Below are positions 28,626 through 63,422 of a stretch of DNA of 64,000 nt, one piece after another. Made by a program: the position numbers and the translations under genes. Below the pieces are notes generated by a model. That model saw only the letters and a list, made by a program, of their open reading frames with translations, did not search any database and was not told the origin of the DNA. Origin of the DNA: Candidatus Gastranaerophilales bacterium (GTDB taxonomy: Bacteria; Cyanobacteriota; Vampirovibrionia; Gastranaerophilales; Gastranaerophilaceae); NCBI GenBank assembly GCA_910587055.1, contig CAJUKY010000003.1, forward strand, positions 34,499 through 98,498, read 5' to 3'. Position 1 is the first letter of the stretch. Every line of letters starts with the position of its first letter.

Positions 28626-28806
28626 AACAGTTTATAAACAGAATTATATTATGAAAAAATCTTTATAAATATTAAGAAATATTAACTCTGAAAATTGCTA
28701 CCGTAGAAGGGTTTGAATAAATTTTATATACTTTTTAAGCAATTTTTATAAACCAAAAATCTTTATTTAAATATAAGAGAGAAAAATATTATTGAGGAGA
28801 GAGCCT

Positions 28807-30195
28807 ATGTCAATGCCTTATGCCATTGATACGAATTATCAACCTGCTTATTTAACTGCACCAAACGGTACGGGGGGGGTAACAAACACAACACCGGCAG
28901 AAGAAGATGTTTCTATTTTAACCTCCAGCAGTGAAACCAAAACCGAAAAACTGGATGCAGATTATGCCTGTACAGACGGAAAAGAGGATGGAAGGCTTAG
29001 CACCGGTGAAAAAATCGAAAGTGTCGGCAAGGGCGTTTTGAAATCGGCCGTAAATATGATAAAGGCTCCTTTTACCGAAGCAGCTAAAGGAAACTTTTTA
29101 CCGGCAATTGTAGCAGCAGGGGGTGCTCTACTTGGCGTTGCAGCTCTGGGTGTTTTCGGCACCGGTATTGCAGCTGTAGCCTGCACTATTGGCGGGCCTA
29201 TTGCTTTTGTAGGCGGCGCAATTGGAATTGCAAAAGGTATCGGTACTATTGTAACCGGATTACAAAAAGCTGATGAAATAGCTAATTCCGGTACCGGAAC
29301 AGATGGCGAAGCAAAAGCAGCTTGTGAACAGGTAGGTTCCGGAATATTCACCACAGGACTTTCAATAGGAGCTGTTGCAGGCGGTATTAAGTCAATAAAA
29401 GGCAGGGCTAAAACTTTTGCAGAAACAAAAGGCAGTAACATGAATAAGTTGTCACAAAAAGTTGCAAGCGGCGAGAAAGTAAGTTTTAGAGAAAAAGTAA
29501 AAGCTTATACCTCAGATAGTTTAGAACCATGCAAATTTGGAAAATTAACAAATAGAAACAATAAATCTTCAACAGAAACCTCGGAACCAAAACCTTCGGA
29601 ACCAAAAATCGAACCGGAAACAAAACCTGCACAAGAAAGTGGCATTAAACAGGATGACTGGCAGTCAAGCCGTGCTGAGGTAAAAGTTGGCTCAAAGTCA
29701 AATTCAAATATTGAACCAACAAATAAAAATCTCACAATTGAGCAGGCACAAAAAGAATTAAGCAATGCTATAAAAACACAACAAGAGGGAATAAACAATA
29801 GAACTCTTACAAAAGCAGATTACAAAGCTAATCAGAAGGCCATCGAACAAGCACAAGCAAATCTTGATTATGCAAAAACACATTCAACACAACCAACACA
29901 ACCAGTTCAAGCGCAATCTCAAGTACAACAATCAACAGACAGTGTCAGCAAAATACAACAGCAAGCAAATACTCCTCTTGATAAAGCGGCAGTAAAATTG
30001 CAAAGTGAACAAGATGCCTTAACTAGGCTTATGAATAGTAAACCTGATAAGTACCTTGACCCCGAGGGTTATAACAATTGGCTTAAAGATGTTGAGAGAT
30101 GCAATGAGTTTATAATCAAAGCAAATAATAATATAACATCTTTACAGGATCAATTTTCTGACGCATATTTTGATAGTTCATTTTTTGATACATAA
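28807..30195 (+). CDS. Orphan membrane protein with glycine-zipper hydrophobic core and Pro/Glu/Lys- and Gln-rich C-terminal half
   Basis: GAGGAG SD precedes the ATG at 28807. Core AAGGALLGVAALGVFGTGIAAVACTIGGPIAFVGGAIGIAKGIGTIVTG. Also SEPKPSEPKIEPETKP. The C-terminus is predicted helical. Confidence 0.65.
   Translation: MSMPYAIDTNYQPAYLTAPNGTGGVTNTTPAEEDVSILTSSSETKTEKLDADYACTDGKEDGRLSTGEKIESVGKGVLKSAVNMIKAPFTEAAKGNFLPAIVAAGGALLGVAALGVFGTGIAAVACTIGGPIAFVGGAIGIAKGIGTIVTGLQKADEIANSGTGTDGEAKAACEQVGSGIFTTGLSIGAVAGGIKSIKGRAKTFAETKGSNMNKLSQKVASGEKVSFREKVKAYTSDSLEPCKFGKLTNRNNKSSTETSEPKPSEPKIEPETKPAQESGIKQDDWQSSRAEVKVGSKSNSNIEPTNKNLTIEQAQKELSNAIKTQQEGINNRTLTKADYKANQKAIEQAQANLDYAKTHSTQPTQPVQAQSQVQQSTDSVSKIQQQANTPLDKAAVKLQSEQDALTRLMNSKPDKYLDPEGYNNWLKDVERCNEFIIKANNNITSLQDQFSDAYFDSSFFDT
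28872..28879 (+). repeat. G8 homopolymer inside the 5' end of the 28807 CDS (codons 22-25)
   Basis: Read directly: a cggggggggt a. Encodes ...GT-GG-V.... Unusual in this AT-rich sequence. Confidence 0.9.
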
Positions 30196-30225: not shown

Positions 30226-30254
30226 AATCCCCGCAATTCCGGCGGGGATTTTAA
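30226..30254 (+). terminator. Intrinsic terminator after the 28807 gene
   Basis: aatccccgc (30226-30234) pairs with gcggggatt (30242-30250), followed by tt. Confidence 0.75.
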
Positions 30255-62357: not shown

Positions 62358-62374
62358 AAAAAAAAAGGGGGGGG
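62358..62374. repeat. A9 G8 double homopolymer tract
   Basis: Read directly: ggc aaaaaaaaa gggggggg tatttt. Intergenic, between the small HTH-like ORF and fliA. Confidence 0.9.
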
Positions 62375-62531
62375 TATTTTCGCAAAATAACCAGGATAGT
62401 ATTCAGTTCTTTAACTTATTTTTTTAAATTTACATCATGTTGCGTAACATTTCTTTACATTTTCATCTGAATAAATGATGTAAAAAACCCGTAATTTTTA
62501 GACAATAAATATGTAAATTGCTATCACATAA

Positions 62532-62597: not shown

Positions 62598-63422
62598 ATG
62601 AGTGAAAATTTTGAAATAGACTCTTTTAAAAAAATTGTAAGATTATCCGATGAAGAAATTGCAGAGCTTTGGAAAATATATCTTGAAGACAAAACTAACA
62701 AGGCCGTCCGCGATAAATTAATCGTTCAATACATCTATTTAACAAGGTATGTAATAGGCAGAATAAAAGTAAATCTACCGTCTACGTACAGTTATGAAGA
62801 CATTACAAGCTACGGCGTAGAAGGTTTAATTGATGCTGTTGAAAAATTTTCACCGCAAAAAGGTGCAAAATTTGAAACCTATGCACTTATGCGCATCAGA
62901 GGAAGCATAATCGACAGAATAAGAGCGGCGGACTGGCTCCCAAGAACCGTAAGAAAAAAGATTAAAGACGTAAAACAGGCAATCGAAACCCTGAAACAAA
63001 AATTAGACAGGAACCCTACCACAAGCGAAATTGCCGAATTTATGGATCTTGAAAAAGAAAAAGTGGAAGAGATTTTAGCGCAGGATACAGGGGTTGATTC
63101 ACTCTATGATAAAAAGGGGCAGGGAGATGAGAGTGTTGAAATCATTGATACCATTGAAGATAAAAAATCCGAACGGCCGGAAGAAGCGGTAGAGAAAAAA
63201 GATGCCAAAAGAGAACTTGAACATGCTCTAAAAAAACTTCCCGAGCGCGAAAGAATGCTTCTTGTATTTTATTACCACGAAAATATGACCTTAAAAGAAA
63301 TCGGCGAAGCTATAAATGTTTCAGAATCAAGAGTCTGCCAGCTTCATGCGCAGGCAATTATGAAATTGAGGAAAATTTTAAGTACATCAAGAAGCGAACG
63401 CCTTGCAAAATCAATAGTTTAA
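62598..63422 (+). CDS. fliA: FliA/WhiG-type (sigma-28 family) RNA polymerase sigma factor
   Basis: Region 2 (YGVEGLIDAVEKF, FETYALMRIRGSIIDRIRAADWLPRTVRKK). Region 4 (MTLKEIGEAINVSESRVCQLHAQAI). Confidence 0.9.
   Translation: MSENFEIDSFKKIVRLSDEEIAELWKIYLEDKTNKAVRDKLIVQYIYLTRYVIGRIKVNLPSTYSYEDITSYGVEGLIDAVEKFSPQKGAKFETYALMRIRGSIIDRIRAADWLPRTVRKKIKDVKQAIETLKQKLDRNPTTSEIAEFMDLEKEKVEEILAQDTGVDSLYDKKGQGDESVEIIDTIEDKKSERPEEAVEKKDAKRELEHALKKLPERERMLLVFYYHENMTLKEIGEAINVSESRVCQLHAQAIMKLRKILSTSRSERLAKSIV

Follow-up and report, generated by a model that had tools for sequence, protein, structure and literature searches.

Does a run of eight G near the start of a gene switch that gene on and off in a gut bacterium of the order Gastranaerophilales? 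An earlier note had proposed so for a membrane protein gene in a metagenome-assembled genome of Candidatus Gastranaerophilales from the mouse gut (assembly 94% complete), of which a 64-kb stretch, here called the window, was analyzed as a whole. Poly-G phase variation is textbook knowledge for Campylobacter, Helicobacter, Neisseria, and Haemophilus; in the literature that we searched, no description of it was found for Melainabacteria/Gastranaerophilales.

The G8 tract and its reading frame

The features of the locus are listed in Table 1. The G8 lies in the codons in which the earlier note had placed it, and the strong Shine-Dalgarno (SD) sequence that had been described was present as well. 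Contingency loci are recognized by an uninterrupted G/C homopolymer of at least 7 to 8 bases in a coding region or promoter and by the loss of the full-length product upon a one-base change in a tract located 3' of the true start; both features were found here. A start codon downstream of the tract, which had been named as an objection to switching, was ruled out because orthologues conserve the SD and the first 20 residues of the protein, as well as the upstream block. The SD position is occupied by a conserved GGAGAG in the orthologues, the N-terminus MSMPYAIDTNYQPAY was kept in homologues in the protein alignment, and the upstream block, a putative promoter element, showed a single A-to-G change in the only strain with a shorter tract (see below). 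The claim that the gene has its own terminator also held: the hairpin (stem at 30226-30250) had a folding energy of -15.5 kcal/mol and a z score of -3.5, and 0 of 200 shuffled sequences folded equally well. A simple terminator scan left it unflagged. As noted earlier, a single other G/C run of at least 8 bases exists in the window, at 62367-62374.

With eight G's, the protein of 462 amino acids would be made. The loss of one G would bring a TAA right after the tract into frame and stop translation at codon 25, and the gain of one G would yield a peptide of 42 amino acids that ends at the TGA at 28932.

Table 1. Features of the G8 locus (positions in the window)
Feature	Position	Strand	Basis or remarks
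Upstream block CTTTATTTAAATATAAGAGAGAAAAA, putative -10 element and leader	28761..28786	+	Near-identical before the L017, L018, and L019 orthologues
Shine-Dalgarno GAGGAG	28794..28799	+	7 nt 5' of the ATG; sequence reading
CDS of 462 aa, ON state	28807..30195	+	ORF from ATG 28807; all-helical, Gastranaerophilales-specific membrane protein
G8 homopolymer, candidate slippage site	28872..28879	+	Codons 22-25; ACG GGG GGG GTA (T22 G23 G24 V25)
TAA, in-frame stop (codon 25) upon loss of one G	28880..28882	+	L008 translation
TGA closing the +1 G frame	28932..28934	+	Sequence reading; 42-aa peptide, truncation at codon 43
CTDGKEDGRL, most conserved family motif	28969..28998	+	Consensus CTDGKDDGKI
Hydrophobic Gly/Ala-rich hairpin, residues 95-152 (58 aa)	29089..29262	+	Kyte-Doolittle windows >1.4
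TDGEAKAACE motif, then third, weakly hydrophobic helix (176-194) with GxxxGxxxG	29299..29388	+	Hydropathy, motif
Mosaic hypervariable cassette, codons 291-400	29677..30006	+	Part of the region of C-terminal helical hairpins
Hairpin resembling a terminator (stem of 9 bp, loop of 7 nt), then U's	30226..30253	+	Between convergent genes

Tract length variation and mismatch repair

The tract was compared among 13 public contigs, which are not all independent samples and in which assembly reports the majority allele. The source runs of the contigs include ERR4082023, ERR4082024, and those of the GCA_9485-9490 MAG series. An in-frame G8 was observed in 12 of them, all encoding the exact protein and including L001 to L007, whereas the remaining one, Logan contig SRR27675763 (L008), had G7 between identical flanks. 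The L008 sequence reads ACG GGG GGG TAA and is translated into MSMPYAIDTNYQPAYLTAPNGTGG followed by the stop. This contig is 95.8% identical to the window across 5.3 kb, the lost G is its sole frame-breaking indel, and 3' of the tract the frame remains open up to the usual stop. There is thus a tract length polymorphism with identical flanks, although a weak one, consisting of a single variant at the consensus level. The earlier note had proposed to count the tract in related strains and had stated that a uniform G8 would speak against switching; the tract is not uniform, given the G7 strain, but 12 of the 13 contigs are identical at the consensus level. The single G7 stems from one short-read assembly and may represent a loss-of-function mutation that has become fixed; an assembly error in SRR27675763 is less likely than that. 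No G9 allele was observed among the 13 contigs, JGI metagenome contigs, when scanned for tracts of G5 to G13 between these flanks, returned 0 matches, and a search for further OFF alleles through the adjoining gene of 250 amino acids and ComEC found none. An interruption of the tract in orthologues was a further objection that had been anticipated. The orthologues and paralogues at 14 other loci contain no G/C run of at least 7 bases, and the tract site reads ACA GCA GTA in the nearest species.

Long G/C runs were in excess in this genome. The window contained 2 runs of at least 8 bases as compared to 0.09 expected at this composition. In the whole genome, runs of exactly 8 bases showed only a two-fold excess (5 versus 2.5 expected), and there were 8 runs of at least 9 bases versus ~0.5 expected. 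GGG is the rarest glycine codon of the genome (14.6%), and GGG-GGG accounts for 0.5% of the Gly-Gly pairs versus 2.1% expected, so that this codon pair is otherwise four-fold depleted. All 8 genic runs of at least 8 bases are in the 5' half of their gene and 3 of the 8 within the first 30 codons; among control runs of 5 to 6 bases, 8.9% fell within the first 30 codons, and the median relative position was 0.47.

The longest tracts varied largely among assemblies of the same species. The lengths were 10, 12, 12, 13, 13, 14, 14, 14, 15, and 17 for a G14 tract (G000:C4:77984) in a gene for a protein of 215 aa; 11, 12, 12, 14, 14, 14, 14, and 16 for a C14 tract that adjoins a TATAAT box; and 10, 10, 10, 11, 11, 11, 12, 13, and 13 for a G10 tract (G000:C6:59068) in a 5'-nucleotidase gene. 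Gene calls at the long variable tracts flip between intact and split with tract length, which means that such calls in metagenome-assembled genomes vary with the sample. Three shorter tracts were invariant, namely, the A9G8 at 62358-62374 (5 of 5 contigs), a C8 in a RelA_SpoT-like gene (G000:C2:16509-16516; 6 of 6), and a G9 in the signal peptide region of an autotransporter gene (G000:C1:78510-78518; all 3 contigs shown). The tract-bearing genes encode a Chlam_PMP autotransporter, a polysaccharide pyruvyl transferase, the 5'-nucleotidase, and an AvrB_AvrC-like protein, and are typical phasome cargo. A phasome is recognized by a genome-wide excess of long tracts together with variability in their length, and this genome displays both. 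Tracts of at least G10 were present in 22 of the 24 genomes of the family. A G-run followed by TA is not an order-wide rule, since of 20 tracts examined in relatives, only 3 had this context.

The MutL domain (PF01119) was detected in 0 of the 13 genomes of the genus, as compared to 26 of the 28 other genomes of the order, and a tblastn search of this genome with a relative's MutL gave a best E value of 0.64; MutS is present. The genus-wide absence of MutL is a plausible mechanistic basis of the phasome. However, MutL loss was rejected as the sole cause of the tracts, since the MutL-bearing genera of the family are also rich in tracts of at least G10.

A rapidly evolving helical protein family

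The protein had been described as an orphan, which it is not: its family comprises 110 representative clusters at 50% identity, and the gene, which is syntenic and adjoins comEC, was present in all 12 genus-mates searched. This is an unannotated all-helical family restricted to the order Gastranaerophilales. Searches of Pfam, NCBIfam, PADLOC, and PHROGs provided nothing usable for the family; a Pfam scan at E values up to 1 returned DUF4175 alone, at 0.2, and no glycine-zipper family, and 0 of 70 family members matched PF13488, PF13441, or PF05433. Searches of the PDB by sequence, by profile, and with the two halves of the protein yielded no usable match.

The earlier description mostly holds: the N-terminus is hydrophilic, the linker is rich in EPK, and the C-terminus is helical and rich in Gln. 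The first 49 residues show poor conservation and low pLDDT values. C55, D57, G58, G62, and D166 are invariant and K170 and G177 nearly so in alignments of 27 and 70 sequences. Concerning the claimed zipper core of some 70 residues, two GxxxGxxxG motifs were found (residues 136-144 and 184-192), but hydropathy places the core at residues 95-152 plus a weaker segment at 176-194. The zipper at 136-144 is common to the orthologues P0004 and P0005, whereas that at 184-192 and an insertion of 14 residues in the first lobe (29134-29175, approximately residues 110-123) are not; the latter was seen in the alignment only in the protein of this species and in the P0002 allele. Residues 95-152 likely form two transmembrane helices, as judged from their sequence. 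Positive charges flank this hairpin on either side and no signal peptide was found, and the charge distribution suggests that both termini are cytoplasmic, unlike the surface exposure typical of contingency gene products.

The AlphaFold2 (AF2) model obtained with 27 sequences was all-helical, with a mean pLDDT of 64 and helical hairpins at 311-359 of high confidence (pLDDT of 92-96); that obtained with 9 sequences (pLDDT of 41.5) was unusable. A Foldseek search of the PDB with the former gave a best E value of 1.4, which is non-significant, and a match to the talin rod fold was rejected for this reason. The fold of alpha-pore-forming toxins (ClyA; AhlB/SmhB) was likewise rejected (SmhB/AhlB E values of 1.9-8.8, probability of at most 0.14, TM score of ~0.15-0.19), and the pore-forming or membrane-inserting module suggested earlier may be considered a resemblance only.

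The protein shares 51% identity with its nearest orthologue, as compared to 78-88% for the syntenic flanking genes, and relatives carry between 1 and 3 tandem copies. Relative to L008, the cassette at codons 291-400 showed 37 differences per 100 nt, whereas codons 1-290 showed 0.1 per 100 nt. A hydrophobic hairpin combined with fast evolution would fit a product that acts at a conflict interface.

Interpretation of the tract and comparison with known systems

Taken together, the evidence leans towards slipped-strand ON/OFF switching at the G8, as at the poly-G sites of Campylobacter, with a low rate. The switch that had been proposed on the basis of the tract is backed in principle by its in-frame position, the natural G7, the hypervariable longer tracts, and the failure to find MutL; the G8 in 12 of 13 contigs, the uniform other 8- and 9-mers, and the orthologues that lack the tract speak against a fast switch. 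A low-rate contingency switch that is usually ON is plausible, and within the set of G-run switches of the genome the G8 is the slow, minor, and weakest tract. Because the genus appears to lack MutL, slippage in G/C runs would be poorly repaired, and the switching rate would increase sharply as tracts lengthen. If Campylobacter jejuni is taken as a guide, the G8 would switch at ~10⁻⁴ to 10⁻³ per division, 10 to 100 times more slowly than the genome's own G10-G14 tracts; assemblies would nearly always display G8 (ON) because of this low rate and because they report the majority allele. The product would consist of a disordered N-terminus, the conserved CTDGKDDGK motif, a hydrophobic hairpin of helices, and exchangeable helical hairpins at the C-terminus. 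The most probable function of this product, although the case is weak, would be that of a membrane-embedded interface protein under diversifying selection by phage, host, or competitors, the presence of which would sometimes be costly. We infer that the switch is reversible and generates mixtures within populations, as we infer its rate and the membrane topology and function of the product.

Alternatively, the tract may be incidental, encoding Thr-Gly-Gly-Val in a disordered and tolerant N-terminus with an occasional slip and no selection for switching, and the G7 strain may simply have lost, through an ordinary frameshift, the function of a gene that is dispensable and evolves fast. We regard this as possible, if rather doubtful. 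The near-uniformity of the G8, the invariance of the other 8- and 9-mers, the absence of the tract from every orthologue and paralogue examined, the merely two-fold enrichment of exact 8-mers, and the poorly conserved N-terminal 49 residues with their low pLDDT all agree with it. Yet the genome otherwise avoids GGG-GGG four-fold, runs of at least 8 bases are skewed to gene 5' ends, the tract was retained in two alleles that differ by a swapped C-terminal cassette, the G7 allele bears no secondary damage, and a stop lies immediately 3' of the tract in the -1 G frame.

An artefact, be it two-color Illumina poly-G or a homopolymer miscall in one Logan contig, is very improbable for either the tract or the G7. 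Poly-G artefacts do occur elsewhere in this assembly: on contig C57, a G7 comes after an Illumina adapter, C13 opens with a C18, and on C6 a C16 adjoins a gap of N's. The G8, however, is situated mid-way along a contig of 133 kb and reads identically in at least 7 contigs that were deposited separately, Illumina indel errors are low at 7- and 8-mers, and the G7 contig retains the A9G8 tract of the same sample unchanged. We assign the lowest probability to an event at the RNA level, namely, transcriptional slippage or ribosomal frameshifting, by which a single DNA sequence would give rise to a mixture of products. Slippage may in principle be induced by G-runs and might partly rescue the G7 allele, but nothing direct favors this explanation, the observed variation sits in the DNA, and known transcriptional slippage prefers longer A/T runs.

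A slow switch at the G8 would be one element of a broader picture, which we advance tentatively and hold to be somewhat short of probable: a MutL-less genus of gut Melainabacteria whose poly-G/C phasome, similar to that of Campylobacter, turns a set of adhesin- and effector-like genes on and off at random. This set would comprise the PMP autotransporter, the 5'-nucleotidase, the AvrB-like protein, the pyruvyl transferase, and the Inc-like helical membrane protein studied here, the G8 of which would be young and recently recruited. Selection would act on the TA(A) found after most long tracts, as an immediate stop to out-of-frame translation. If sequencing reads bear this picture out, these uncultured relatives of cyanobacteria, which do not photosynthesize, would use a phasome for bet-hedging in the mammalian gut. 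The unannotated, rapidly diversifying membrane protein family would probably act where the cell meets phage, host, or competitors; for the G8 at 28872 specifically, the practical value is modest.

Several known systems resemble this locus in part. The two GxxxGxxxG motifs in Gly/Ala-rich hydrophobic helices recall Gly-zipper_Omp, Gly-zipper_YMGG, and Rick_17kDa_Anti, unlike which the protein has no HMM match even at E values up to 1. Chlamydial Inc proteins and other secreted effectors with bilobed hydrophobic domains (PMC3290821, PMC3656976) share with it the missing signal peptide, a variable unstructured N-terminus, a bilobed hydrophobic hairpin of 40-60 residues, helical or coiled C-terminal domains, low conservation, and rapid evolution. 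Residues 95-152, with a Gly/Pro turn, correspond to the hydrophobic domain of ~40-60 residues with hydrophilic flanks of the Inc type, which is a resemblance only, as sequence homology to Inc proteins is lacking and the organism is not known to be intracellular. A type III effector was rejected for want of an injectisome: no non-flagellar type III system was found in the 94%-complete assembly, and the FHIPEP matches were a full FlhA and an isolated protein with only the FlhA_C domain among housekeeping genes. Neither VirB4 nor TssC was found in the genome.

The closest parallel in tract biology is C. jejuni, the poly-G/C contingency loci of which include cj1139 (G8) and cj0031 (G9), with rates per division of 0.4 × 10⁻⁴ (G8 to G7), 6.9 × 10⁻⁴ (G8 to G9), 17.9 × 10⁻⁴ (G10 to G9), and 38.8 × 10⁻⁴ (G11 to G10) (Bayliss et al. 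2012, PMC3401435). Common to both are a low-GC genome, intragenic G tracts of at least 8 bases near 5' ends, an excess of long G/C runs, length-dependent variability, surface and glycan cargo, and an incomplete MutS/MutL set. The host, in contrast, is an uncultured gut commensal of the Gastranaerophilales (Melainabacteria/Vampirovibrionia) that has MutS and misses MutL alone, the gene encodes an unannotated helical membrane protein instead of a glycosyltransferase or a restriction-modification enzyme, and variation was seen at the consensus level in 1 of 13 contigs, with a rate that is taken from C. jejuni by analogy alone. Poly-G variation also occurs in the pmp genes of Chlamydia pneumoniae, and the likeness to these lies in the Chlam_PMP-repeat autotransporter of the same genome, with its G9, which is a different gene from that containing the G8.

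Reading frame of the G8 tract and its G7 allele

The window corresponds to G000:C3:34499-98498, where G000 is its own genome assembly (2.07 Mb, 35% GC, 81 contigs, labeled C1, C2, etc.). Direct reading and the ORF listing bore out that the G8 tract lies in codons 22-25 of a gene with a strong Shine-Dalgarno sequence, the target gene, and folding supported a terminator of its own, a hairpin that a simple terminator scan did not call. The window contains 2 G/C runs of at least 8, against 0.09 expected at its composition; as noted earlier, the second is found at 62367-62374, and there are no others. The N-terminal peptide MSMPYAIDTNYQPAY.. is kept in homologues at 33-56% identity, and the upstream block ..TTTAAATATAAGAGAGAAAAA.. 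and the Shine-Dalgarno sequence are likewise conserved in orthologues. The tract is therefore inside the translated gene, and a start codon 3' of it, which the earlier note had raised as an objection, was ruled out. Apart from this peptide, the first 49 residues are poorly conserved and disordered in the AF2 model, so that the region would tolerate extra glycines. If one G is lost, the sequence reads ACG GGG GGG TAA and translation would end at codon 25; if one is gained, the frame continues for 18 further codons to the TGA at 28932.

The exact 462-aa protein was present on 12 public contigs, with G8 in 7/7 of those listed. The adjoining 250-aa gene was found on 14 public contigs, the two additional ones being a contig that ends short of the tract and L008/L013 (Logan, SRR27675763). 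In L008, the tract is G7 and its flanks are identical to those of the window; at the level of assemblies, the uniform G8 across strains that the earlier note had held against a switch was not observed. On L008, the gene caller returned only a 407-aa ORF from an internal TTG (P0002), and the downstream frame is open from 5' of the tract through to the normal stop. L008 and the window share 95.8% identity over 5.3 kb, and the lost G is the sole frame-breaking indel, the remaining ones all lying inside a diverged cassette. The lost G is also the single difference in codons 1-290, and codons 291-400 contain 37 differences per 100 nt. Consequently, there is one natural OFF allele, which is recent and in a different allele background. 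Codons 291-400 form a swapped, highly diverged cassette between the two strains (window 29677-30006 and L008:3640-4030); outside it, gene and flanking sequence hardly differ, and ComEC differs by 3.5%. A ComEC-based look-up of contigs retrieved no further OFF copies, and a pattern scan of JGI metagenomes for the tract gave no matches.

Family, locus and structure of the target protein

The initial view of the protein as an orphan had to be abandoned: its family comprises 110 representative clusters at 50% identity and was detected in 12/12 genus-mates and 16/24 family genomes searched, often in 2-3 tandem copies. In the eight genus loci compared, the gene adjoins comEC wherever the locus extends to that side, and a 250-aa Tyr/Asn-rich secreted protein is encoded on the opposite side in 3/8. 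Identity to the nearest species is 51% for the target versus 78-88% for the flanking genes. Orthologues of the gene occur in Candidatus Gastranaerophilales entries of the mouse gut catalogue MGBC. Orthologues and paralogues at 14 loci of other species contained no G/C run of at least 7, and the nearest species reads ACA GCA GTA at the tract site. The tract is thus missing from orthologues (the earlier note had listed its interruption there as adverse) and is therefore young and species-specific. In a distant family member, the part of the gene that encodes the hydrophobic core has an in-frame G8 at codon 110 (GCG GGG GGG GTA).

Conserved features include C55-T-D-G-K-D-D-G-K-I followed by an amphipathic helix, and T165-D-A-E-A-K with a third, weakly hydrophobic helix. 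The hydrophobic Gly/Ala hairpin is also conserved; here it spans residues 95-152, including an insertion of 14 aa that no other species showed. The protein contains two GxxxGxxxG motifs. It was not recognized by Pfam, NCBIfam, PADLOC, PHROGs, or PDB by sequence. The AF2 model (27 sequences) is all-helical with a mean pLDDT of 64 and confident C-terminal helical hairpins; Foldseek against the PDB gave nothing below E 1.4. No injectisome context, VirB4 or TssC was found in G000. Because library and fold matches and these systems are all lacking, the likeness to Inc-type effectors or pore-forming modules is a mere resemblance. The FlhA-type genes of G000 are a flagellar flhA (C1) and an isolated FlhA_C-domain gene, which sits amid housekeeping genes, apart from the full-length flhA.

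Poly-G/C tracts across the genome

G000 contains 5 G/C runs of exactly 8 (2.5 expected) and 8 of at least 9 (about 0.5 expected). Three of the longest runs are artefact-like, located at a contig start (C18, C13:1-18), beside an N run (C16, C6:30842-30857) and after an Illumina adapter (G7, C57:42-48). GGG is the least used Gly codon (14.6%), and GGG-GGG is four-fold depleted among Gly-Gly pairs (0.5% versus 2.1% expected). Genic runs of at least 8 were in the first half of the gene in 8/8 cases and within the first 30 codons in 3/8, and 5/13 runs of this length were intergenic; control runs of 5-6 were evenly distributed, with 8.9% of them in codons 1-30 and a median relative position of 0.47. 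G-runs of at least 7 were followed by TA, often TAA, in 10/21 cases versus about 9% for runs of 4-6 (e.g., window 28872-28882 and 62367-62376). The 5'-nucleotidase tracts of genus-mates and the G8 of the distant family member on L123 likewise run into TAA; among tracts sampled across the order, TA followed in 3/20. One possible reason is selection for a stop codon that is reached at once in one of the shifted frames.

Features and tracts (unprefixed coordinates refer to the window; L, retrieved public loci; G008 and G010, other genomes of the genus; lengths are from same-species assemblies)
Feature	Location	Strand	Details
Target ORF, 462 aa	ATG 28807 to TAA 30195	+	ORF listing
G8 homopolymer	28872-28879	+	ACG GGG GGG GTA, codons 22-25 of target ORF
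Shine-Dalgarno GAGGAG	7-nt spacing 5' of target ATG	+	Read from sequence
9-bp hairpin 3' of target stop	30226-30250	+	dG -15.5 kcal/mol, z -3.5
G8, distant family member	L123:1779-1786; L124:1779-1786		Two JGI/ENA metagenome contigs
G14	G000:C4:77984-77997		In 215-aa gene; lengths 10, 12, 12, 13, 13, 14, 14, 14, 15, 17 (L039-L048)
C14	G000:C10:62111-62124		Directly upstream of TATAAT box; lengths 11, 12, 12, 14, 14, 14, 14, 16 (L032-L038)
G10	G000:C6:59068-59077		In 5'-nucleotidase; lengths 10, 10, 10, 11, 11, 11, 12, 13, 13 (L067-L076)
5'-nucleotidase homologue tracts	L128 (G010:C119) position 2367; L129 (G008:C17) position 1511		
A9G8	62358-62374		Same in 5/5 other contigs covering the site
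C8	G000:C2:16509		RelA_SpoT-like gene; same in 6/6
G9	G000:C1:78510		Chlam_PMP autotransporter; same in 3/3 among matches listed
Chlam_PMP-repeat autotransporter	G000:C1:75136-78576		G9 in signal-peptide region
Calpain-like Peptidase_C2 protein	G000:C1:158594-159877		G11 272 nt upstream
RelA_SpoT-domain protein	G000:C2:16424-17599		N-terminal poly-C tract
Second protein, similar to RelA_SpoT-domain protein	G000:C6:30724-31659		Visual likeness only
AvrB_AvrC-like protein	G000:C10:61027-62022		Tract-associated (C14)
FlhA_C-only protein, 489 aa	G000:C5:39309-40778		FHIPEP positions 321-656, cytoplasmic C-terminal half

Calls of the 215-aa gene alternate between intact and split among assemblies, and the 5'-nucleotidase is intact at tract lengths 10 and 13 and split at 11 and 12. 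Two further species of the genus have 5'-nucleotidase homologues with tracts of their own, a G9 and a G13, located elsewhere than the G10. The C14 tract is placed between the AvrB_AvrC-like gene and a 197-aa gene. Among the tracts compared, the target G8 was the only short one with any length variant. The A9G8 tract, 231 nt upstream of a sigma-28-type sigma factor gene (62598-63422), was unchanged even in the sample carrying G7 at the target tract. Several of the tract-linked genes look effector-like or adhesin-like. Overall, variability climbs steeply from 9 to 10 repeats, in agreement with the length dependence of rates measured in C. jejuni (per division, 0.4e-4 for G8>G7, 6.9e-4 for G8>G9, 17.9e-4 for G10>G9 and 38.8e-4 for G11>G10; PMC3401435).

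Mismatch repair and the status of the target tract

A MutS with domain I is encoded in G000 (C24:7133-7465). The MutL domain PF01119 was detected in 0/13 genomes of the genus and in 26/28 other Gastranaerophilales genomes, and the best tblastn match in G000 to the MutL of a relative from the same family had an E of 0.64. These data point to a probable genus-wide loss of MutL, which could plausibly raise homopolymer slippage. Tracts of G10 or longer were present in 22/24 family genomes, including genera with MutL, so that its absence is not the whole cause of the tracts.

Clearly, G000 runs a poly-G/C phasome, of which the target G8 is plausibly a mechanistically valid but slow member. The slippage switch proposed in the earlier note was thus supported in part. 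The phasome, the frame effects and the G7 allele argue for it. Nearly all assemblies have the gene ON, and a single strain has it OFF; this near-uniformity speaks against a fast switch and would suit an incidental tract that was not selected as a switch, which we consider the less likely reading. The literature searched contained no description of phase variation in Gastranaerophilales or Melainabacteria.
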